From sequence record OR941417.1: a DNA stretch of 38,501 nt. One strand, written 5' to 3'. Positions 1-32,811 of this stretch are shown in pieces. The notes beneath the pieces are model-generated. The model saw only the letters and a list, made by a program, of their open reading frames with translations, did not search any database and was not told where the DNA came from. Source of the DNA: Escherichia phage RCF. A program made the position numbers and the translations under genes. Within the stretch, counting starts at the first letter, position 1; every line of letters begins with the position of its first letter.

Positions 1-969
1 GCCAAGGGTAATTGGGGTCTGGAGTCGATGGACTACTGGCAGACACTGGCGGAGCGTATGCGTGATGTTGGTTTCGTCAAGCTGGGCAACGGTCACTTTA
101 GCGCAGCCTATGAACACGCACTGCTACCGGGTAAGGTCATCAAGGTAGGCTTTAAGAAAGAGGACTCAGGCGCTGCCTATGCTGCCTTCTGCCGTATGAA
201 TCAGGGTCGTGAGGGTATCCCTACGGTGTACGACATTCAGCGTCATGCGGGCTGCTACACGGTGGTCTTGGACTATCTGACACCGCTTAACGATTGGTGC
301 TACGGTGAAAGTGATAAGATTCGCCACCACTTCCACGCTGCAAGGGAAATCATTCAGGAGGATTGCTTCGACACCGCCGAAGAGTACCCGATAAGCGAGG
401 GCTTCATTGAGACCTGCAAGGATATCCGCAAGTTCTTCTTAGGCATCGCATCGTTCGACTGTCATAGCGGTAACATGATGAAAGACCAGATGGGACGCCT
501 GATTATCACAGACCCGGTATCATTCAGCGCAGACGACAAGTTAAAGCCGGGTGAGTTCCACTGTGACCCGGATGAACTAATCGCTGAGATTGAGGCGCTG
601 AGGGCGCAGGAAGCGATTGACCGCTGTAAGGCACGCAAGGCACGCCGTGACCCTAACGGAACCTTTCAGGCAGCACGTAAAGCCCGTGCCAAATGGCGCA
701 GAAAGGCCTCTAAGCGTGAGAAGCGCAACGCTAAGGTACTCGCTAAGATGCGCATGGATGCCAATCAGAATCGCAGGGATGAGCCTAGGGCGCGTATGGT
801 GTGGGGCGATAAGCACTGGCGCAACGCTTGGATGCACCACAACAATCTAAACTTTGCAGAACTGGAGCGCCGCGCTGCTGCGGCAATGATGATGCATGAT
901 GAGGTGCGCATTCAGTGGGGCAAACCGTTACACATAGACGCATACCTTGACAAGCGTCTGCAAGGCTGA
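1..969 (+). CDS. 0.7: Gene 0.7 protein kinase / host transcription shut-off protein, C-terminal portion; the ORF begins at 38234 and continues across the window wrap (about 369 aa in total)
   Basis: Translation matches T7 gp0.7 (FKMLGNGHFSAAY, GKVIKVGFKKEDSGAAY, CRM.QGR.GIP.VYD, HAGCYTVVLD, basic C-terminus). Frame is continuous with 38234..38501 through the 127-nt overlap. Confidence 0.9.
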   Translation, partial: AKGNWGLESMDYWQTLAERMRDVGFVKLGNGHFSAAYEHALLPGKVIKVGFKKEDSGAAYAAFCRMNQGREGIPTVYDIQRHAGCYTVVLDYLTPLNDWCYGESDKIRHHFHAAREIIQEDCFDTAEEYPISEGFIETCKDIRKFFLGIASFDCHSGNMMKDQMGRLIITDPVSFSADDKLKPGEFHCDPDELIAEIEALRAQEAIDRCKARKARRDPNGTFQAARKARAKWRRKASKREKRNAKVLAKMRMDANQNRRDEPRARMVWGDKHWRNAWMHHNNLNFAELERRAAAAMMMHDEVRIQWGKPLHIDAYLDKRLQG

Positions 970-980
970 TAAAGTCTTTT

Positions 981-1012
981 CTTACAGGTCATCATGCGGT
1001 GGCCTGAATAGG
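981..1012 (+). promoter_or_regulatory. Possible RNase III processing hairpin between genes 0.7 and 1 (CAGGTC...GTGGCCTGAAT)
   Basis: Weaker version of the recurring hairpin motif; position corresponds to T7 R1. Confidence 0.35.
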
Positions 1013-1039
1013 AACGATTTATTCACAATGAGGTAAGCA

Positions 1040-3694
1040 ATGAACATCATCGAAAACATCGAAAAGAATGACTTCTCCGAAATCGAACTGGCTGCTATCC
1101 CGTTCAACACACTGGCAGACCACTACGGTAGCGCATTGGCTCGTGAACAACTGGCTTTAGAGCATGAGTCTTATGAGCTAGGCGAGCGCCGCTTCCTCAA
1201 GATGCTTGAGCGTCAAGCGAAAGCTGGTGAGATTGCAGACAACGCAGCCGCTAAGCCATTACTCGCTACGCTTCTCCCTAAGTTAACCGCACGTATCGTT
1301 GAGTGGCTCGAAGAGTACGCATCGAAGAAAGGCCGCAAGCCCGTAGCCTATGCACCACTCCAGCTACTCAAGCCGGAGGCGTCCGCGTTTATCACACTCA
1401 AGGTCATCCTTGCGTCACTGACCAGCACGAACATGACAACCATTCAGGCCGCTGCTGGTATGCTGGGGAAGGCCATTGAGGACGAGGCACGTTTCGGGCG
1501 CATCCGTGACCTCGAAGCGAAGCACTTCAAGAAGCACGTTGAGGAACAACTCAACAAGCGCCACGGGCAAGTCTACAAGAAAGCCTTTATGCAGGTGGTT
1601 GAGGCCGATATGATTGGTCGTGGGCTGCTGGGAGGCGAGGCGTGGTCTAGCTGGGACAAGGAAACCACGATGCACGTAGGGATTCGCCTGATTGAAATGC
1701 TGATTGAATCCACGGGTCTGGTGGAACTACAGCGCCACAACGCAGGCAACGCAGGCTCTGACCATGAGGCACTGCAACTGGCCCAAGAGTACGTCGATGT
1801 GTTAGCGAAGCGTGCAGGAGCACTGGCGGGTATCTCTCCGATGTTCCAGCCGTGTGTCGTACCGCCGAAACCTTGGGTATCAATCACAGGTGGCGGCTAT
1901 TGGGCTAACGGTCGCAGACCTTTGGCACTCGTTCGCACTCACTCTAAGAAGGGACTGATGCGCTACGAAGACGTTTACATGCCAGAAGTCTACAAGGCTG
2001 TGAACATCGCACAGAACACCGCATGGAAAATCAACAAGAAAGTTCTTGCCGTTGTCAATGAAATTGTTAACTGGAAGAATTGCCCGGTCGCAGATATTCC
2101 ATCGCTGGAGCGCCAAGAGTTACCGCCCAAGCCGGACGACATTGACACCAACGAGGCAGCACTCAAGGAGTGGAAGAAAGCCGCCGCTGGTATCTACCGC
2201 TTGGACAAGGCACGAGTGTCTCGCCGTATCAGCTTAGAGTTCATGCTGGAGCAGGCCAACAAGTTTGCAAACAAGAAAGCAATCTGGTTCCCTTACAACA
2301 TGGACTGGCGCGGTCGTGTGTACGCTGTGCCGATGTTCAACCCACAAGGCAACGACATGACGAAAGGTCTGCTGACCCTCGCTAAAGGCAAGCCAATCGG
2401 TGAGGAAGGGTTCTACTGGCTGAAAATCCACGGTGCGAACTGTGCGGGTGTCGATAAGGTTCCTTTCCCTGAGCGCATCGCGTTCATTGAGAAGCACGTA
2501 GACGACATTCTGGCTTGCGCTAAAGACCCAATCAACAACACTTGGTGGGCCGAGCAGGATTCACCATTCTGTTTCCTCGCGTTCTGCTTCGAGTATGCAG
2601 GCGTTGCGCACCACGGTCTGAGCTACAATTGCTCTCTGCCGCTGGCGTTCGATGGGTCTTGCTCCGGTATCCAGCACTTCTCCGCGATGCTCCGCGATGA
2701 GGTAGGCGGTCGCGCGGTTAACCTGCTGCCAAGCGAAACCGTGCAGGACATTTACGGAATCGTTGCACAGAAAGTAAACGAGATTCTCAAACAGGATGCA
2801 ATCAACGGCACACCTAACGAGATGATTACCGTGACCGACAAGGACACCGGGGAAATCTCAGAGAAGCTCAAGCTGGGAACCTCAACGCTGGCGCAACAGT
2901 GGCTGGCATATGGTGTAACCCGTAGCGTAACTAAACGTTCGGTCATGACGCTGGCTTACGGTTCCAAGGAGTTCGGCTTTCGTCAACAGGTACTGGACGA
3001 CACCATTCAGCCTGCGATTGACAGCGGTAAGGGCTTGATGTTCACTCAACCTAACCAAGCGGCTGGCTATATGGCTAAGCTGATTTGGGACGCGGTGAGC
3101 GTGACCGTAGTCGCAGCGGTTGAGGCGATGAACTGGCTCAAGTCTGCCGCCAAGCTGCTGGCTGCTGAGGTCAAGGACAAGAAGACCAAGGAGATTCTGC
3201 GCCACCGTTGCGCGGTTCACTGGACTACGCCGGACGGCTTCCCGGTATGGCAGGAATACCGCAAGCCACTCCAGAAGCGTCTCGATATGATTTTCTTGGG
3301 GCAATTCCGTCTGCAACCGACGATTAATACCCTCAAGGATTCAGGCATTGACGCACACAAGCAGGAGTCTGGCATCGCGCCTAACTTTGTTCACTCACAG
3401 GACGGTAGCCACCTCCGCATGACAGTCGTTTATGCTCACGAGAAGTATGGCATTGAGTCCTTTGCGCTCATCCATGACAGCTTTGGGACTATCCCGGCAG
3501 ACGCTGGTAAGCTCTTTAAGGCTGTGCGTGAGACGATGGTTATCACCTATGAGAACAACGATGTGCTGGCAGACTTCTATGACCAGTTTGCAGACCAGCT
3601 ACACGAGACCCAACTGGACAAGATGCCTCCGCTTCCGAAGAAAGGAAACCTGAACCTGCAAGACATTCTCAAGTCTGACTTTGCCTTTGCATAA
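1040..3694 (+). CDS. 1: Single-subunit phage RNA polymerase (T3-type), 884 aa
   Basis: 884-aa ORF collinear with T7 RNAP, preceded by a GAGGT Shine-Dalgarno. Its cognate T3-type promoters recur through the genome. Confidence 0.98.
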   Translation: MNIIENIEKNDFSEIELAAIPFNTLADHYGSALAREQLALEHESYELGERRFLKMLERQAKAGEIADNAAAKPLLATLLPKLTARIVEWLEEYASKKGRKPVAYAPLQLLKPEASAFITLKVILASLTSTNMTTIQAAAGMLGKAIEDEARFGRIRDLEAKHFKKHVEEQLNKRHGQVYKKAFMQVVEADMIGRGLLGGEAWSSWDKETTMHVGIRLIEMLIESTGLVELQRHNAGNAGSDHEALQLAQEYVDVLAKRAGALAGISPMFQPCVVPPKPWVSITGGGYWANGRRPLALVRTHSKKGLMRYEDVYMPEVYKAVNIAQNTAWKINKKVLAVVNEIVNWKNCPVADIPSLERQELPPKPDDIDTNEAALKEWKKAAAGIYRLDKARVSRRISLEFMLEQANKFANKKAIWFPYNMDWRGRVYAVPMFNPQGNDMTKGLLTLAKGKPIGEEGFYWLKIHGANCAGVDKVPFPERIAFIEKHVDDILACAKDPINNTWWAEQDSPFCFLAFCFEYAGVAHHGLSYNCSLPLAFDGSCSGIQHFSAMLRDEVGGRAVNLLPSETVQDIYGIVAQKVNEILKQDAINGTPNEMITVTDKDTGEISEKLKLGTSTLAQQWLAYGVTRSVTKRSVMTLAYGSKEFGFRQQVLDDTIQPAIDSGKGLMFTQPNQAAGYMAKLIWDAVSVTVVAAVEAMNWLKSAAKLLAAEVKDKKTKEILRHRCAVHWTTPDGFPVWQEYRKPLQKRLDMIFLGQFRLQPTINTLKDSGIDAHKQESGIAPNFVHSQDGSHLRMTVVYAHEKYGIESFALIHDSFGTIPADAGKLFKAVRETMVITYENNDVLADFYDQFADQLHETQLDKMPPLPKKGNLNLQDILKSDFAFA

Positions 3695-26528: not shown

Positions 26529-29500
26529 ATGAGCTACGATAAGAACAAACCTAGCGAGTTCGATGGGTTATTTCAAAAAGCGGCAGACAAACATGGGGTC
26601 TCCTATGACCTGCTTCGTAAATTAGCATTCAATGAGTCCAGCTTCAATCCAAAGGCCAAATCACCAACTGGCCCGAAGGGTCTCATGCAGTTCACCAAGG
26701 GTACAGCCACTGCGCTGGGACTCAAGGTAACTGATGCAGACGATGATGACCGCTACAACCCTGAGCTGGCTGTGGATGCAGCCGCTCGCCACCTGAGTGA
26801 CCTCATTCGTAAATACGATGGGGACGAACTTAAGGCAGCCCTAGCGTACAACCAAGGCGAGGGGAGAAATGGTGCCCCTCAGATGCAGGCCTACGACAAA
26901 GGTGATTGGGCCTCAATCTCTGAGGAAGGTCGTAACTATATGCGTAACCTGATTGACGTAGCTAACAGTCCTCGCAAGGGGGACTTGGAGGCGTTTGGCG
27001 GCATCACCCCAAAGGCTAAGGGCATTCCATCGGGGGATGCATTTGCTGGAATCGGGAAGAAGCAGACGGTAGGAACCGACCTGCCGGAGTCAACTGGATT
27101 CAAAGTGGAGGGTAAAGAGCAGAAAGCACCTAACGTGCCTTATGCTAAGGACTTTTGGGAAAAGACTGGAACAACACTGGACGAGTTTAACTCACGCTCT
27201 ACCTTCTTCGGAATTGGAGATGCAACAAGTGCGGAGCTTCACAACTCTGTACTTGGAGTTGCTTTCCGTGCAGCCCGTAGCGACGATGGTTTTGATTTGT
27301 TCAAGGACACCATTACGCCGACTCGCTGGAACAGCCATACGTGGACTCCAGAAGAGTTAGAGCGTATTCGTAAGGAAGTGAAGAACCCATCGTACATCAA
27401 CGTAGTCACTGGAGGCTCTCCTGAGAATCTGGACGCCCTCATTAAGATGGCGAATGACAACTACGAGATGGACGCGCGGTCTGCCGATGCTGGTGTTGGT
27501 GCCAAACTTACTGCTGGTATCGTCGGTGCTGGTGTAGACCCGCTGAGTTACGTGCCGCTAGTAGGCGTAGCCGGGAAGGGTCTCAAGGTGGTTAACAAGG
27601 CTTTCATTGTGGGTACTCAAAGTGCTGGCCTCGCTGTTGCCTCTGAGGGTCTCCGTACATCAATCGCTGGTGGAGAAGCCCACTATGCTGATGCTGCTTT
27701 AGGCGGTCTGATGTTCGGTGCCGGGATGAGTGCAATCAGTGACGCTATCGCCGCTGGTATTCGCCGTTCCCGTGGTACTGAGGTTGTTAATGACTTCGCT
27801 CCTATGGCACACCGATTGGAAGCCCGTGAGACCGCTCTGAACTCTGGCGGTGAAGACCTGACCCGTATGCCTAGCGAGAACCGTGTGTTCGACCGTGAGC
27901 ACGCTGGCGTTGAGTATTCACCTCTGGAGACCGAGCCGGGTGCCGTTGTGTTGCCTCAAGGTCAAATCCTTAGCGACACCAACCCGCTGAACCCTCAGAC
28001 TCTTAGCGAGTTCGAGGCGGTCAACCCTGAGCGCGCCTCTCGTGGTATCTCTTTGGGTGGTTTCACTGAGATTGGCTTGAAGACTCTCCGCTCTGAGAAC
28101 CCGACTGTTCGCTCCATTGCGAGTGACCTTGTGCGTTCTCCGACAGGGATGGAATCAGGCTCTAACGGTAAGTTCGGTGCGACTGCTTCTGATATTAAGG
28201 AGCGGCTCCACGCGAACAATCAGCGCACCTACAATCAGCTTTATGATGCTGTGCGTACTGCGATGAAAGACCCTGAGTTCTCCACTGGCGGTTCCAAGAT
28301 GAGCCGTAAGGAAATCCGACAGGAAATCTACAAGCGTGCAGCCTTGGCGATTGAGCGACCTGAGCTTCAAGCAAACCTGACAAAGGGTGAGCGGAACGTG
28401 ATGAACATCCTCAAGCAGCACTTCGACCTCAAACGTGAAATCATGGAGAACCCGTCAATCTTTGGCAACACCAAGGCGGTCAGTATCTTCCCCGGCTCAC
28501 GCCACAAGGGAACCTACGTGCCAAACGTGTACGACCGCGCAATCAAGATTGAGATGGTTAAGCGCTACGGTAACGATGGATTGCAGCGAGCAATCGCGGA
28601 GTCATGGTTGACGTCTTATCGCGCTCGTCCAGAAGTCAAGGCGAGGGTCGATGAGTACCTGATGGAACTCAATGGTCTCAAATCCGTGCAGGAAGTTACG
28701 CCTGAGATGGTGCAGAAGCACGCGATGGATAAGGCGTATGGTATTTCACACACTGACCAGTTCTCTGCATCCTCTGTCATTGAGGACAACATTGAGGGTC
28801 TGGTCGGTATCGAGAACAACAACTTCTTGGAAGCCCGTAACATGTTCGACAGTGACATGGCGGTGACGCTCCCTGATGGTAACACGTTCTCTGTGAATGA
28901 CCTCCGTACCTATGACATGGCTGAAATTCTGCCTGCATATGACCGACGAGTGGATGGGGACGTTGCAATCATGGGAGGTTCCGGTAAGACTACCAAAGAC
29001 CTGAAAGATGAAATCATGGCGCTGGATAAGCAGTCAGAGGGTAACGGCACACTGAAAGGTGAGGTGGAAGCCCTCAAGGATACCGTGAAGATTCTAACTG
29101 GTCGCGCTCGTAGGAACCCGGAAGGCGCTTGGGGCACAGCCCTGCGCTCCGTCAATGACCTTACGTTCTTCGCTAAGAACGCCTACATGGGTGCGCAGAA
29201 CATTACTGAAATCGCTGGTATGCTGGCTAAAGGTAACGTCTCTGCGATAACTCATGGCATCCCTATGATTAACGATTGGGTCAACCGTGGTAAACCGCTT
29301 CGTGCCTCTGAGATTAAGGAGATACACGGGATGGTGTTCGGTAAGGAACTAGACCAACTAATCCGTCCGGGACGTGAAGACCACGTGCGCCGACTCCGGG
29401 AGTCTACGGACACCAGCGCTGCGGTTGCCAATGTGGTCGGTACGATTCGTTTCGGCACTCAAGAGTTGGCTGCACGCTCTCCTTGGACAATGCTCCTAAA

Positions 29501-30491
29501 CGGAACATCAAACTACATTCTTGATGCTGCCCGTCAGGGTGTGCTTGGGGATGTGGCTGGAGCGGCCCTTGCTGGGAAAGCCTCTAAGTTCGGTAAGGCA
29601 AACTACCTTAAGTCTGCCTCTATCAGCCCTGAGCAGTGGAATGGAATCAAGCAGTTGTTCAGAGACTATGCGACTCGTGGAGAAGACGGTAAGTTCACCA
29701 TTCGTGACAAACAGGCTTTCGCTAACGACCCACGCTCAATGGACTTGTGGCGTCTGGCTGACAAGGTGGCTGATGAGACTATACTTCGTCCACACAAGGT
29801 TTCCTCACAGGATGCCAAGGCATACGGTGCCGGAGTTAAGATGGTGATGCAGTTTAAGAACTTCGTCATCAAGTCCCTGAACTCCCGGTTTGTCCGTAGC
29901 TTCTACGAGGCAACGAAGAACAACCGAGCGTTAGACCAAGCGTTGACTCATATCATCTCTTTGGGTCTAGCTGGTGGTTACTACGTTGGGCAGGCACACC
30001 TTAAGGCTGCAAGTCTACAGGAGCACAAACGTAAGGAGTACCTTAAGAACGCCCTTGACCCTAAGATGATTGCTCATGCGTCAATCTCTCGTAGTTCACA
30101 CTTAGGCTCACCATTGAGTATCTACGACATGTTCGCTGGTATGGTTGGTAGCGATACCTATAAGTACACCCGCTCTACGGTGCTCCCTAAAGAGTCCGAG
30201 AAGCGTGACCCTAACAAGGCAGTGACAGGTAGGCAGGTGGCTTCAACTATCGCAGGTGCAGTTGGTGAGCAGGTTCCGGGTTTAGGTTTTGTTGGCTCTG
30301 TTGGTGCAACAGCTATTAACGCCGCTTCCCTGCTGTCTTCTCCGAACAAGGCTACCGCTCTGGAGTTCCGTACAGGACTCTTCAACACCTCTCGTGAGTT
30401 GATTCCTAATGACCCGCTATCACAGCAACTCATTATGAAAATCTACGAGGCCAACGGTATCCGCATAAAGGAGACGCCGAAGAAACAATAA
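26529..30491 (+). CDS. 16: Internal virion (core) protein D with N-terminal lytic transglycosylase domain
   Basis: 1320 aa; the N-terminus (LLRKLAFNESSFNPKAKSPTGPKGLMQFTKGTA) fits a soluble lytic transglycosylase motif as in T7 gp16. Confidence 0.93.
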   Translation: MSYDKNKPSEFDGLFQKAADKHGVSYDLLRKLAFNESSFNPKAKSPTGPKGLMQFTKGTATALGLKVTDADDDDRYNPELAVDAAARHLSDLIRKYDGDELKAALAYNQGEGRNGAPQMQAYDKGDWASISEEGRNYMRNLIDVANSPRKGDLEAFGGITPKAKGIPSGDAFAGIGKKQTVGTDLPESTGFKVEGKEQKAPNVPYAKDFWEKTGTTLDEFNSRSTFFGIGDATSAELHNSVLGVAFRAARSDDGFDLFKDTITPTRWNSHTWTPEELERIRKEVKNPSYINVVTGGSPENLDALIKMANDNYEMDARSADAGVGAKLTAGIVGAGVDPLSYVPLVGVAGKGLKVVNKAFIVGTQSAGLAVASEGLRTSIAGGEAHYADAALGGLMFGAGMSAISDAIAAGIRRSRGTEVVNDFAPMAHRLEARETALNSGGEDLTRMPSENRVFDREHAGVEYSPLETEPGAVVLPQGQILSDTNPLNPQTLSEFEAVNPERASRGISLGGFTEIGLKTLRSENPTVRSIASDLVRSPTGMESGSNGKFGATASDIKERLHANNQRTYNQLYDAVRTAMKDPEFSTGGSKMSRKEIRQEIYKRAALAIERPELQANLTKGERNVMNILKQHFDLKREIMENPSIFGNTKAVSIFPGSRHKGTYVPNVYDRAIKIEMVKRYGNDGLQRAIAESWLTSYRARPEVKARVDEYLMELNGLKSVQEVTPEMVQKHAMDKAYGISHTDQFSASSVIEDNIEGLVGIENNNFLEARNMFDSDMAVTLPDGNTFSVNDLRTYDMAEILPAYDRRVDGDVAIMGGSGKTTKDLKDEIMALDKQSEGNGTLKGEVEALKDTVKILTGRARRNPEGAWGTALRSVNDLTFFAKNAYMGAQNITEIAGMLAKGNVSAITHGIPMINDWVNRGKPLRASEIKEIHGMVFGKELDQLIRPGREDHVRRLRESTDTSAAVANVVGTIRFGTQELAARSPWTMLLNGTSNYILDAARQGVLGDVAGAALAGKASKFGKANYLKSASISPEQWNGIKQLFRDYATRGEDGKFTIRDKQAFANDPRSMDLWRLADKVADETILRPHKVSSQDAKAYGAGVKMVMQFKNFVIKSLNSRFVRSFYEATKNNRALDQALTHIISLGLAGGYYVGQAHLKAASLQEHKRKEYLKNALDPKMIAHASISRSSHLGSPLSIYDMFAGMVGSDTYKYTRSTVLPKESEKRDPNKAVTGRQVASTIAGAVGEQVPGLGFVGSVGATAINAASLLSSPNKATALEFRTGLFNTSRELIPNDPLSQQLIMKIYEANGIRIKETPKKQ

Positions 30492-30510
30492 ACCCTCACT
30501 AAAGGGAGAG
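30487..30510 (+). promoter_or_regulatory. phi17: T3-type phage RNAP promoter, AATAAACCCTCACTAAAGGGAGAG
   Basis: Consensus match overlapping the gene 16 stop. Confidence 0.85.
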
Positions 30511-30562
30511 AGGTCACATTCTGGCCTCTTCTCTCTTAATGCTAATTTACAAAGGAGGTCAC

Positions 30563-32170
30563 ATGGCTACAACTATTAAGACCGTGATGACTTACCCGCT
30601 GGATGGCTCCACTACGGACTTTAATATTCCGTTCGAGTATCTGGCGCGTAAGTTCGTCAGAGTGACCCTTATCGGTGTTGACCGAAAGGAACTCATCTTG
30701 AATCAAGACTATCGTTTTGCGACTAAGACCACAATCTCCACAACGAGAGCATTGGGGCCAGCGGACGGTTATAACCTTATCGAGATTCGTCGGTACACCT
30801 CAGCGACTGAACGTCTGGTTGACTTTACGGATGGCTCAATCCTCCGTGCGTATGACCTGAACATCTCGCAGGTGCAGACCCTCCACGTTGCTGAGGAAGC
30901 GCGTGACCTTACCGCTGATACGATTGGCGTTAACAACGATGGCGACTTGGATGCTCGTGGTCGTCGTATCGTGAACGTTGCGGACGCTAAAGACCCCGGT
31001 GACGCAATCACTTTGGGTCAAGTCTCTCGGTGGAATGAGTCGGCACTGAACTCTAAGAATGCTGCTGCTGCATCTCAACAGGCCGCTGCTGCATCCCAAC
31101 AGGCCGCTAAGACCTCAGAGAACAACTCGAAGGTGTCTGAGAACAACGCAAAGACCTCCGAGAGTAACGCGCATCAATGGGCGCAGCGTGCAGAGGACTC
31201 TCCGGTTCAGGGTAGCGAGTTCTCTGCGTATCACTACTCACGGAAGGCCTCAAAGAGTGCCGCCGCCGCAAGTACGTCTGAGGGGAATGCAAAGACCTCT
31301 GAGAACAACGCAAAGACCTCTGAGAACAACGCAAAGACCTCTGAGAGCAACGCCGCTACCAGTGCTGCAACCGCTATCGCTGAGGCCGCCAAGTTGACAA
31401 ACATGAATGATTTTGCGACTACCATCAAGGCTGTTAACACAGCTACCTACTCGGTTTCGTGGAAAGGTGATGGCATGTTTGACGGCTCGGTCACTGCTGG
31501 TAAAGGACTTACAGTGTCTACTGGTGACGTCACCATTAACCAAGGAACGGGCAACTGGGTTTTCCTGAATGGGTACACAGCAGTTGGTGTTAACTACACA
31601 TCCAATGGCATTCGTACATCTAACCGAAACAATCAGCGCGTGGACGACTACACGTGGGAAGCGACAGGGCAGTATTTTGCCAAAGTAGTCCACGTATACC
31701 AAGCAGGCAATCCAAACATTCCAGAGTTCTTCTACGAGTTCCGAAACAATGGTACTGTGCAGTTGGGCCAAGTTAGGGCGATTGGTGGAGATGAATCCAC
31801 CTTCCAGCACAACGTTAATATCCAGTGGGGTGGCCGTGGCGCCCGTTATCAGGAAAATGGCGACATTGTGTCTATACAGGGGGATGCATCCATCTTCCGA
31901 GAATTTGGAGGAACACTTAGTGGTACAATTAACTGGCTTAAGAATGTTAACATTCAGGACGTTTGGTTAGGTGGTCAGGAGTGGTGGGGTTCTTTACGTG
32001 GCAACGGGAATAGCCGTTCTGACTGGGCATTGGGTGGAGGCTCAGTGTGTACTGGCGTGACTCAGGATATGACAGCAGGTGAGCGTAATGCTTGGATTGA
32101 TGGTATATTCCATCGTAAGGTCTGGATTCGTTATGGCTCTGGGCAGCAGCGCATCATTGCTTCTGTTTAA
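30563..32170 (+). CDS. 17: Tail fibre protein (conserved N-terminal tail-attachment domain, repeat-containing shaft, divergent C-terminal receptor-binding region)
   Basis: N-terminal ~150 aa match T7 gp17 (IKTV.TY.LDGS..DFNIPFEYLARKFV.VTLIGVDRK, GVNNDG.LDARGRRIVN); the rest diverges. True start is ATG 30563 after AAAGGAGG; track start 30539 lies in the 5' UTR. Confidence 0.9.
   Translation: MATTIKTVMTYPLDGSTTDFNIPFEYLARKFVRVTLIGVDRKELILNQDYRFATKTTISTTRALGPADGYNLIEIRRYTSATERLVDFTDGSILRAYDLNISQVQTLHVAEEARDLTADTIGVNNDGDLDARGRRIVNVADAKDPGDAITLGQVSRWNESALNSKNAAAASQQAAAASQQAAKTSENNSKVSENNAKTSESNAHQWAQRAEDSPVQGSEFSAYHYSRKASKSAAAASTSEGNAKTSENNAKTSENNAKTSESNAATSAATAIAEAAKLTNMNDFATTIKAVNTATYSVSWKGDGMFDGSVTAGKGLTVSTGDVTINQGTGNWVFLNGYTAVGVNYTSNGIRTSNRNNQRVDDYTWEATGQYFAKVVHVYQAGNPNIPEFFYEFRNNGTVQLGQVRAIGGDESTFQHNVNIQWGGRGARYQENGDIVSIQGDASIFREFGGTLSGTINWLKNVNIQDVWLGGQEWWGSLRGNGNSRSDWALGGGSVCTGVTQDMTAGERNAWIDGIFHRKVWIRYGSGQQRIIASV
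31061..31351 (+). repeat. In-frame 21-bp (heptad) tandem repeats within tail fibre gene 17: block 1 at 31061..31169 (5 units), block 2 at 31289..31351 (3 units, 62/63 nt identical)
   Basis: Units GCAAAGACCTCTGAGAACAAC x2 then GCAAAGACCTCTGAGAGCAAC (AKTSENN/AKTSESN); upstream units encode AAASQQA x2 and AKTSENN/SKVSENN/AKTSESN. Confidence 0.9.
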
Positions 32171-32180
32171 GGAGAACAAT

Positions 32181-32567
32181 ATGGTTAAGTATGAAAACTG
32201 GAAGTGGACTAACGGTGAACAAGTCGGGCCTGATCGTTATATCGCCGAGATTAACATTGGGGAACTCTCTTGGTACGACCTGATGGAAGACTTGGATAAG
32301 CAAGGAGAACGTGTGGTCGTCGGTGTGTCCAGCGATGGAAGCGTCAACTGGTTCACCGATGGTCGGGTATCAGGTGTTCACGCCCCGTCTGATGGGACAA
32401 GTGTTGTTGTGGTTGATAGTGTCCCATTCACTCAGGAAGACTATCGACAATTCATCTTGGTAGGCAACGAGTTCCAGCGTAAGGAAAGCACGCTAACTCC
32501 GCGCACTAAGGAAGACATCATGGCTGACTTAATTAAACTTCAAGAGGAACTGAAAGCTATGGCATAG
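32181..32567 (+). CDS. Hypothetical 128-aa acidic protein between tail fibre and holin; family not recognised
   Basis: ATG 32181 with RBS TAAGGAGAACAAT, 10 nt after the gene 17 stop, no phage promoter of its own. No TM segment. Track start 32079 is inside gene 17 and unlikely. Confidence 0.6.
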   Translation: MVKYENWKWTNGEQVGPDRYIAEINIGELSWYDLMEDLDKQGERVVVGVSSDGSVNWFTDGRVSGVHAPSDGTSVVVVDSVPFTQEDYRQFILVGNEFQRKESTLTPRTKEDIMADLIKLQEELKAMA

Positions 32568-32607
32568 CGATAAAGAACAAGGATGTTCACACATAAGGAG
32601 AACAAGA

Positions 32608-32811
32608 ATGTTATCTTTTGACTTCAATAACGAGGTCGTTAAGGCTGCGCCGATTGTTGGCACAGGGGTCGCTGATGGTGCGGCCCGACTCTTTTGGGGA
32701 CTATCGTTAAACGAATGGTTCTACGTTGCAGCTATCGCCTACACAGTGGTTCAGATTGGTGCCAAGGTAGTCGATAAAATGATTGACTGGAAACGTGCAA
32801 ATAAGGAGTAA
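32608..32811 (+). CDS. 17.5: Type II holin
   Basis: 67 aa, near-identical in pattern to T7 gp17.5 (ML.DFNNE..KAAPIVGTGVAD..ARLF.GLSLNEWFYVAAIAYTVVQIGAKVVDKMIDWK.ANKE). Confidence 0.92.
   Translation: MLSFDFNNEVVKAAPIVGTGVADGAARLFWGLSLNEWFYVAAIAYTVVQIGAKVVDKMIDWKRANKE

Follow-up and report, generated by a model that had tools for sequence, protein, structure and literature searches.

Is the tail fibre of Escherichia phage RCF of one piece with the T3-like genome that carries it, or was it assembled from parts with separate histories, and what does the additional gene downstream of it contribute? The window analysed here (the whole 38,501-nucleotide stretch of record OR941417.1) belongs to a T3-like Teetrevirus with about 97% identity to the Klebsiella phages GlastosBack and Bobalons; compared with the whole window, Teetrevirus genomes show 95-97% identity. 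A sequence-only reading of this locus had proposed that the fibre resembles T7 gp17 over its first 150 or so residues and is unrelated to it from about residue 160, that this reflects exchange of a host-range module, and that the different tip and the extra downstream ORF point to a receptor other than that of T7. Sequence comparison identifies gene 17 as a mosaic tail fibre, in which a conserved N-terminal domain is joined to exchanged outer modules (Table 1).

The gene itself had been placed correctly: its ORF runs from the ATG at 30563, with AAAGGAGGT just before it, to the stop codon at 32168-32170. In the ORF listing it follows the gp16 homologue (26529-30491) and precedes the holin gene 17.5 (32608-32811), and thus occupies the T7-like position between genes 16 and 17.5, behind a phage RNA polymerase promoter. 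The core of this T3-type promoter occurs 16 times in the window, where chance alone predicts 0.12, and the GP-5 record annotates a promoter at the equivalent place.

Table 1. Features of the gene 17 locus of phage RCF (positions are those of the window)
Feature	Coordinates	Strand	Basis
T3-type late promoter upstream of gene 17	30488..30510 (core CCCTCACTAAAGGGA, 30493-30507)	+	exact core match
Gene 17, tail fibre protein, 535 aa	30563..32170, including stop	+	ORF listing, RBS, PF03906 and PHROG tail-fibre matches
N-terminal tail-attachment domain (Phage_T7_tail), aa 1-155	30563..31027	+	PF03906, E=3.5e-58
Heptad-repeat (coiled-coil type) shaft module, aa 165-285	31055..31417	+	21-nt tandem arrays, blastn junctions
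Distal fibre region, candidate receptor-contact region, aa 286-460	31418..31942	+	most variable part among near-identical relatives
C-terminal domain, putative chaperone-docking tip, aa 461-535	31943..32167	+	conserved motifs DVWLGGQEW...ALGGGSVCTG...FHRKVWIRYG
Tfa-like tail-fibre assembly chaperone ORF, 128 aa (predicted)	32181..32567	+	TfaMu-like domain aa 1-100 and helix aa 108-127
Common right-hand junction of the exchanged cassette	about 32591..32608	+	just upstream of holin gene 17.5

The close likeness of the first 150 or so residues to T7 gp17 was confirmed and lies far above chance. The PF03906 match scores 196 bits against a cutoff of 25.2, and this domain is 76-77% identical to those of T7 gp17 (NP_042005) and T3 gp17 (NP_523342) and 94-99% identical to those of other Teetrevirus fibres. 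BLASTP gives 8e-93 against T7 gp17 and 2e-91 against T3 gp17, and phmmer matches the solved T7-type fibre N-termini 7BOZ, 8E4G and 8DSP.

Beyond this domain, the claim that similarity to T7 is lost from about residue 160 divides in two. The BLASTP alignment with T7 and T3 runs unbroken to about residue 303, and the phmmer match to the T7 fibre structure 7BOZ covers residues 1-308, so that "unrelated from 160" was overstated: the shaft (aa 156-303) retains weak homology to T7 and is by alignment a diverged homologue of the T7 shaft, at about 30% identity, extending to a conserved KLxNxN linker. From residue 304 to 535 the claim stands, with no BLASTP similarity to T7 gp17 or T3 gp17. The shaft module proper contains arrays of 21-nt tandem repeats (31064-31108, 31105-31170 and 31289-31353), and its identity to other fibres climbs from 30-32% (T7 and T3) through 44% (KLB4), 65% (Patroon) and 81% (F1M1C) to 92% (ZCEA1). 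Relative to GlastosBack the shaft has shifted by one heptad register, and an ungapped codon comparison between the two phages is therefore invalid in this region.

The distal part of the fibre differs from the T7 and T3 proteins (structures 7BOZ and 4A0T) in that its last 230 residues are unrelated to theirs in pairwise comparison. BLASTP similarity ends at residue 303, and the C-terminal pyramid and tip domains of the T7 type (4A0T) were not found by it; the DGNIxGxxWGGxWL connector of 4A0T was detected by the family profile only (E=0.004). Residues 286-460 are 91-94% identical in GP-5, GlastosBack, WW2 and ZCEA1, 46% in Erwinia phage SNUABM_09 and 34% in Erwinia phage Cronus. The last 75 or so residues, by contrast with this variable region, are conserved in all fibres that have a member of the 128-aa ORF family next downstream, and their identity between phages tracks that of the N-terminal domain of the downstream protein. 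In hhalign, positions 182-255 of the tip profile align end to end with residues 436-504 of the Mu fibre protein S (E=3.7e-4, with a probability of only 36%); an hmmsearch of PDB sequences with the tip profile missed the Mu fibre (5YVQ_A), and of the matches it did return, a TRIM3 repeat was discarded as spurious and the other was the T7 gp17 connector. The AF2 model of residues 281-535 was unusable (pLDDT 30): its input alignment had two rows, because the homologue search with the tip sequence and a nine-member tip profile returned a single relative (P0019), while GenBank holds near-identical fibres.

The downstream ORF is real. It begins 10 nt after the gene 17 stop with its own RBS (AAGGAGAA). 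In T7 and T3, whose fibres require no separate chaperone, no gene lies between 17 and 17.5. A longer, GTG-started version (32079-32567, as in GlastosBack) was rejected, since the ATG at 32181, where the alignment of the family starts, has an RBS of its own. In its predicted model the product adopts the fibre-binding N-terminal fold of TfaMu (5YVQ_B), its only strong structural match, followed by a single predicted helix (aa 110-127) with the invariant sequence RTKEDIMADLxKLQEELKAL and 4-3-4 hydrophobic spacing, far shorter than the corresponding domain of Mu U. Membership of the Tfa group rests on this predicted structure, because the protein has no Pfam match at E<=0.1, hence no Caudo_TAP (PF02413), and none in PHROGs or NCBIfam, and because hhalign of the family against Mu U is not significant (E=0.18). 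A search of PDB sequences with the chaperone profile gave nothing meaningful. Among 1.84 billion representatives, the family profile found about 42 clusters at 50% identity, and PF02413 is carried only by its weakest matches (P0047, P0049 and P0054-56). In every relative inspected, podoviruses and large phages alike, the ORF directly follows a gene whose fibre product ends in the conserved C-terminal domain. We read it as a putative Tfa-like assembly chaperone, in agreement with the GP-5 annotation (tail fiber assembly protein). As such it would mark a chaperone-dependent tip and is therefore not itself evidence about the receptor, for which the sequence-only reading had taken it.

Three known systems place this gene pair. 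(i) Mu encodes the fibre S and its partner U (TfibMu:TfaMu, PDB 5YVQ); the ORF is 15% identical to the Mu protein and has 128 residues against 175, with one invariant helix where Mu has a C-terminal helical domain and without the Caudo_TAP match, and RCF, unlike Mu, has a podovirus fibre and no invertible G segment. (ii) Cronus (Straboviridae) carries a homologous fibre tip (AWD90415, 40% over 210 aa) and, directly downstream and before the holin, a homologous 130-aa ORF (AWD90416, 42%); it differs in having a T4-type long tail fibre in a 176-kb myovirus whose remaining genome is unrelated. The 171-kb record of Escherichia phage ST2, considered as a second myovirus with the cassette, was rejected as evidently a mixed assembly, given its T7-like genes for holin and terminase. 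(iii) EmilieLinder (Bas103), a Teseptimavirus of the BASEL collection, encodes a fibre (Gp59) followed by a separate "Mu-like Tfa" (Gp60), the two being predicted to form a hexameric fibre-chaperone complex (PMC11990801); the pairing of a T7-like fibre with a Mu-like Tfa is thus already published. Bas103 belongs to another genus than RCF and has another tip, and its BASEL relative Bas104 has an ORF homologue with 35% identity.

Could the 128-aa protein instead stay on the virion? As an adhesin, a co-adhesin or a transient cap over the receptor site at the fibre tip, it would contribute to host range. Mu provides a precedent, since TfaMu reportedly stays bound to the fibre tip and possibly contacts the LPS receptor, and for Alteromonas phages a capping role of chaperones has been suggested (PMC10579305); moreover, the Cronus homologue occupies the slot of gp38 in T-even phages, which in T2-type phages is the adhesin. 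The ORF was not found to have the glycine-rich motifs that, in gp38 adhesins of the T2/S16 type, form the polyglycine sandwich capping the fibre and binding the receptor. We consider such a role unlikely. That the ORF has nothing to do with the fibre, being for example a single-stranded DNA-binding protein or a selfish or moron gene, is very improbable: its homologues are labelled ssDNA-binding protein in HZP2, vB_KpnP-VAC1 and KPP-5, and hypothetical protein in most records, yet Pfam and NCBIfam gave no match, to SSB or otherwise, TfaMu alone matches its structure strongly, and in all inspected relatives it lies directly behind a fibre gene encoding the conserved C-terminal domain, with which it co-varies.

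A related and more tentative proposal, which we put forward as possible but less likely than not, is that the 128-aa proteins, set apart from the assembly chaperones already catalogued, form a distinct "minimal Tfa" class that is inherited as a unit with just the last 75 or so fibre residues, occurs in virulent phages only and may also serve as a virion cap or co-adhesin. The class would be built from a TfaMu-like fibre-binding domain and one invariant amphipathic helix replacing the Caudo_TAP helical domain. It seems to be confined to virulent phages, namely T7-like podoviruses and a few large myoviruses.

The boundaries of the exchanged DNA are sharp. In blastn, identity to Teetrevirus genomes that are otherwise 93-97% identical ends abruptly at 31054 (KLB4), 31066 (Patroon) and 31416 (F1M1C), and homology resumes at 32587-32608 for F1M1C, mtp14, phage 31, T3, T7, N30 and Patroon. 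Yersinia phage WW2 shows the opposite: over the backbone it is 60-80% identical to RCF, but over 31400-32600 the identity is 92-99%, which marks this region as a clean block of horizontal transfer. Module exchange is thereby borne out, and the C-terminal part is not the T3 fibre, so that the exchange reading also survives comparison with that reference. What does not hold is a single junction near residue 160: there are at least three nested left junctions, at residues ~164, ~285 and ~460, the first two lying at about 31054-31066 and 31400-31416, and one shared right end. An origin without exchange, in which host-selected point mutations rapidly changed the C-terminus and the fit to the tail kept the N-terminus constant, would suit the fast evolution of receptor-binding regions and the clustering of nonsynonymous changes at residues 320-415 within the near-identical fibre group, but is almost certainly wrong, since identity to backbones 93-96% identical drops below detection over a few bases (at 31054, 31066 and 31416) and comes back equally sharply at 32591-32608, the WW2 cassette is far closer than its backbone, an entire additional gene is present, and the same tip and ORF are found in a T4-like myovirus.

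The exchange is to be understood relative to T3, T7 and most Teetreviruses; GlastosBack, Bobalons, GP-5, Keithstache and NL_ZS_3, its nearest relatives, share the fibre. Gene 17 is found at full length and 93.5-97% nucleotide identity in six GenBank phages, GP-5 (PP454755), Keithstache, NL_ZS_3, Bobalons, GlastosBack and S147_CPL00262, which agree with RCF in genus and gene order; their fibre genes (93.5-96.9% in direct comparison with RCF) and downstream ORFs (97.7-99.2% amino acid identity) differ from those of RCF by a few dozen substitutions, mostly at fibre residues 320-415 and including the replacement of NPNI383-386 by SQTV. The arrangement of fibre and chaperone is therefore not new, being nearly unaltered in several sequenced Klebsiella phages. 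Pattern scans for prophages in one genome per GTDB species (185,579) found no relatives of the tip or the chaperone, an absence that is weak evidence because the scans depend on short exact motifs.

Taken together, we think it likely that gene 17 encodes a modular, trimeric T7-type fibre assembled by recombination, with the 128-aa ORF as the dedicated chaperone of its tip. The N-terminal domain would plug the fibre into the T3-like virion tail, and the shaft, distal and C-terminal modules would have been joined by homologous recombination at conserved linkers, from a pool common to T7-like phages of Klebsiella, Erwinia, Pantoea, Yersinia and E. coli and to some large myoviruses. The distal module would depend on the chaperone, co-transcribed from the gene 10 nt downstream, whose N-terminal domain, with its TfaMu-type fibre-binding fold, would dock on the last 75 or so fibre residues. 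The invariant amphipathic C-terminal helix may then gather three chaperone copies, an extrapolation because there is one C-terminal helix here against a helical domain of about 70 residues in classical Tfa proteins; the three fibre chains would thereby be kept in register, with folding that starts at the C-terminus and proceeds inwards. Host specificity would be set by the fibre tip and not by the chaperone. The hosts and the unrelated tip suggest a receptor differing from that of T7; the specificity would differ from that of T3 as well, its target probably being some surface structure other than the capsule in Klebsiella and related Enterobacterales.

These results serve mainly annotation and engineering and do not change what is known of T7-like fibres. 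They fix the module boundaries of this Klebsiella Teetrevirus fibre at residues 164, 285 and 460 and place its right end immediately ahead of the holin gene, and they support renaming a family called "hypothetical" or "ssDNA-binding protein" in most records as a Tfa-like chaperone. The 1.2-kb block at 31400-32600, comprising the distal fibre and the putative chaperone, is shown to have moved between genera as a unit, so that host-range swaps of the fibre should include the downstream ORF.

The ORF listing for gene 17 spans 30539-32170; its biological start is the ATG at 30563, which is preceded by AAAGGAGGT and from which the protein reads MATTIKTV, matching the register of MANVIKTV in T7 and T3. 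Pfam placed the T7 tail-fibre N-terminal domain (PF03906, E=3.5e-58) at aa 1-155 of the 535-aa product, a region that many PHROG tail-fibre families also match, and identity to T7 and T3 is 76-77% there. BLASTP alignments to the RefSeq gp17 of T7 (E=8e-93) and T3 (2e-91) run unbroken past residue 160, up to aa ~303, and the phmmer match to the T7 fibre structure 7BOZ covered aa 1-308. Identity is 30-32% over aa 156-285 and falls to 20-24%, the forced-alignment baseline, past aa 285. Thus, while the sequence-only reading was right in seeing an N-terminus close to T7 gp17, its claim that the fibre is unrelated to that of T7 from about residue 160 stands for the distal C-terminus and fails for the shaft; judged from these alignments, the truly unrelated part is the one beginning near residue 304.

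Three tandem arrays of 21-nt units (one heptad) code for part of the shaft, as AAASQQA and AKTSENN repeats. Relative to Klebsiella phage GlastosBack, an offset of one heptad runs from aa ~176 to ~241 of the shaft, with the total length of 535 aa unchanged, which suggests that a repeat unit was lost in one array and gained in another.

The first 25 kb of the window are 95-97% identical (coverage 98-100%) to a large Teetrevirus (T3-like) group whose isolation hosts were Klebsiella, Yersinia, Citrobacter, Pantoea, Serratia and Shigella; its closest members are GlastosBack and Bobalons (97.0%), both from Klebsiella. On its + strand the window carries 16 T3-type promoter cores, where chance would give 0.12. 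In megablast, the relatives of gene 17 fell into three classes: (i) six records matching at full length (93.5-96.9%); (ii) some matching over the first ~854 or ~1200 nt only; and (iii) dozens matching over the first 492 nt only (93-98%). Local blastn of the window against the fetched loci placed the left junctions at aa ~164, where the N-domain ends, and at aa ~285, where the shaft ends, the latter at a conserved linker, KLTNMNDFATTIKAV, whose T7 counterpart is KLENYNGLAGAIDKV. The first shaft array starts at the 31054-31066 junction. Since homology resumes at ~32590-32608 in Patroon, F1M1C, T3 and T7, the right junction of the exchanged cassette is constant, just upstream of the holin gene (32608-32811). 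Erwinia phage ZCEA1, 92-93% identical over fibre aa 165-460 and less so beyond, shows an additional junction near aa 460. The clearest evidence of fibre module exchange comes from Yersinia phage WW2, whose flanking genes share 60-80% identity with the window, against 92-99% from ~31400 to ~32600. This 1.2-kb block, which holds fibre aa 280-535 and the downstream ORF, has evidently been exchanged between different backbones. With such sharp junctions and the WW2 block, the proposal of module exchange was correct in substance.

Features of the fibre region and phages compared with it (window positions; identities to the window)
Feature or phage	Position or left junction	Strand	Identity up to left junction	Right side or remark	Identity, fibre aa 461-535	Identity, chaperone N-domain
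T3-type promoter core	30493-30507	+		Ahead of gene 17		
Shaft tandem arrays	31064-31108, 31105-31170, 31289-31353					
Downstream ORF	32181-32567	+		128 aa; RBS AAGGAGAA; 10 nt past gene 17 stop		
KLB4	31054		95.8%	Record stops after fibre gene		
Patroon	31066		93%	Homology back at 32608 (96.8%)	61%	52%
F1M1C	31416		93%	Homology back at 32591 (97.9%)		
T3 and T7	~30988		~68%	Homology back at ~32590		
ZCEA1					76%	52%
SNUABM_09					72%	50%
N30					36%	43%
Cronus					52%	41%

The type species T3 itself seems to be the recombinant at the fibre locus: when 758-2509 of the T3 locus is compared with window 30563-31027, its N-domain is only 77% identical to that of the window, against 94-99% in other Teetreviruses; it looks nearly the same as that of T7 in BLAST alignments; and an unused T7 promoter is annotated just upstream of its gene 17.

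The extra ORF behind the fibre gene, noted from the sequence alone, does exist: a spacer of just 58 nt separates genes 17 and 17.5 in T7 and T3, whereas here the space holds a 128-aa frame with its own ribosome-binding site. Its product had no match in Pfam, PHROG or NCBIfam. With tblastn, homologues were found in 55 phage records, each directly behind a fibre gene; nearly all carriers are T7-like (~39 kb), the exceptions being the T4-like Erwinia phages Cronus and IT22. Cronus has a homologous tip on its distal long-fibre protein, with the ORF homologue placed after that gene and before the holin, where T-even phages carry the gp38 gene. The family is a small one, with 18 clusters (90% database) and, out of 1.84 billion, 42 representatives at E<=1e-3; the weakest of these are proteins of 173-179 aa with Pfam Caudo_TAP, which gives an initial, remote connection to classical Tfa proteins. 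In the family alignment the N-terminal 100 residues are variable and the C-terminal motif RTKEDIMADLxKLQEELKAL is invariant. The label of ssDNA-binding protein given to homologues in HZP2, vB_KpnP-VAC1 and KPP-5 had no support in Pfam or other searches, nor did our searches support the longer, 160-aa version annotated in GlastosBack, which overlaps gene 17.

A confident AF2 model built on the family alignment (pLDDT 90) shows a mixed beta/alpha domain and, after it, a helix (aa 110-127) whose invariant residues I113, L117, L120 and L124 are spaced 4-3-4. Foldseek of this model against viral predicted structures returned family members on top and next annotated myovirus Tfa proteins. The part of the Mu assembly protein TfaMu resolved in 5YVQ is its non-conserved, fibre-binding N-terminal domain, and its conserved C-terminal helices are thought to trimerise (PMC9608196). 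The 128-aa protein, with its variable N-domain and invariant helix, resembles a shortened TfaMu. The alignment of the ORF family with Mu U by hhalign was not significant (E=0.18), although its register is plausible. The model lends structural support to the putative chaperone assignment.

Every fibre trailed by a family member shares a conserved C-terminal stretch of ~75 residues (DVWLGGQEW...DWALGGGSVCTG...FHRKVWIRYG..IASx), and the 150 residues before it vary widely. The last 74 columns of a tip profile built without Mu aligned with residues 436-504 of the Mu fibre S (E=3.7e-4, probability only 36%), reaching the final residue on both sides; the T7 gp17 crystal fragment matched only via the connector DGNIxGxxWGGxWLxxYL (E=0.004). 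Identity in the chaperone N-domain follows that in fibre aa 461-535, not that in aa 304-460 (Table). Because of this tracking, aa 461-535 are likely the chaperone-docking domain, co-inherited with the ORF, on a basis of sequence and co-variation only. On a 142-kb IMG/VR contig (IMGVR_UViG_3300045988_041714), the stretch 26-3375 contains a fibre ORF of 968 aa or more that ends in a DGNIQG..YGG connector and a Mu-S-like C-terminus, followed by a 148-aa chaperone homologue ending ERTKEDILADLIKLQKELESM; the contig thus adds another large phage whose end modules are arranged in this way.

Beyond the near-identical set, the closest tips are those of T7-like phages of Erwinia pyrifoliae and Pantoea (52-54%), followed by Sibilus and SNUABM_12 (43%), Cronus and IT22 (40%) and the mtp, Keithsmous and Bumbleweed group of Klebsiella Teetreviruses (34-37%). 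A protein-database search with the tip (31403-32170), as sequence and profile, returned a single relative, 34% identical, against 93-96% for GenBank fibres. Pattern-limited scans of one genome per GTDB species found no relatives of tip or chaperone, and IMG/VR contributed only a few T7-like contigs and the 142-kb one with its fibre-end plus chaperone arrangement; the module pool therefore appears, tentatively, to circulate among virulent phages. In Pantoea phage vB_PdeP_F2M1C, a 127-nt tandem duplication in gene 17 (locus 3200-3330, window 31636-31762; in blastn, 31762 adjoins 31636 at 3200/3201) splits the fibre ORF into a 403-aa CDS and small fragments; either the gene is truly disrupted or the assembly is at fault. 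Escherichia phage ST2 (OM982647.1), labelled a 171-kb partial genome of Kagunavirus, has a T7-like class II holin, small terminase subunit and primase/helicase beside its chaperone homologue; the record, which appears to be a mixed or chimeric assembly, was set aside as evidence.

Pfam detected no enzymatic domain in the gene 17 product, and ~230 residues are short for a depolymerase; the 'N-terminal glycosidase domain' noted in the GP-5 fibre record was unsupported by our searches. The GP-5 fibre gene is 96.9% identical to gene 17 of the window. GP-5, obtained on a wbaP-disrupted strain, infects capsule-deficient K. pneumoniae, and a non-capsular receptor was suggested for it by its authors (PMC11486747); the host range of NL_ZS_3 is relatively broad (PMC8677704). 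For phages from capsule-deficient Klebsiella, and not specifically for the RCF-type tip, resistance often lies in O-antigen or LPS-core genes (PMC10433977). Within the near-identical group, codon changes number 2 nonsynonymous against 8-10 synonymous in the ORF, and 11-14 against 14-19 in fibre aa 286-460; these counts, though small, fit the idea that the tip rather than the chaperone sets specificity. The nonsynonymous differences concentrate in aa 320-415, a possible receptor contact; at aa 383-386 (31709-31720) the window has NPNI and both GP-5 and GlastosBack have SQTV.

That unrelated phages exchange distal tail-fibre modules along with their chaperones has been known for a long time. Among T7-like phages, the second BASEL paper describes a Teseptimavirus whose fibre is followed by a separate "Mu-like" Tfa (PMC11990801), six phages in GenBank carry the RCF fibre at 93.5-97%, and three GenBank records already name ORF homologues "tail fiber assembly protein". 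The finding is in that sense ordinary, with the fibre already in GenBank. What our analysis adds is (i) the precise nested junctions and the WW2 transfer block; (ii) model-based structural support for the putative chaperone; (iii) an ORF co-inherited with no more of the fibre than its final 75 residues; and (iv) an ORF family that Pfam, PHROGs and NCBIfam miss and that is often mis-annotated.
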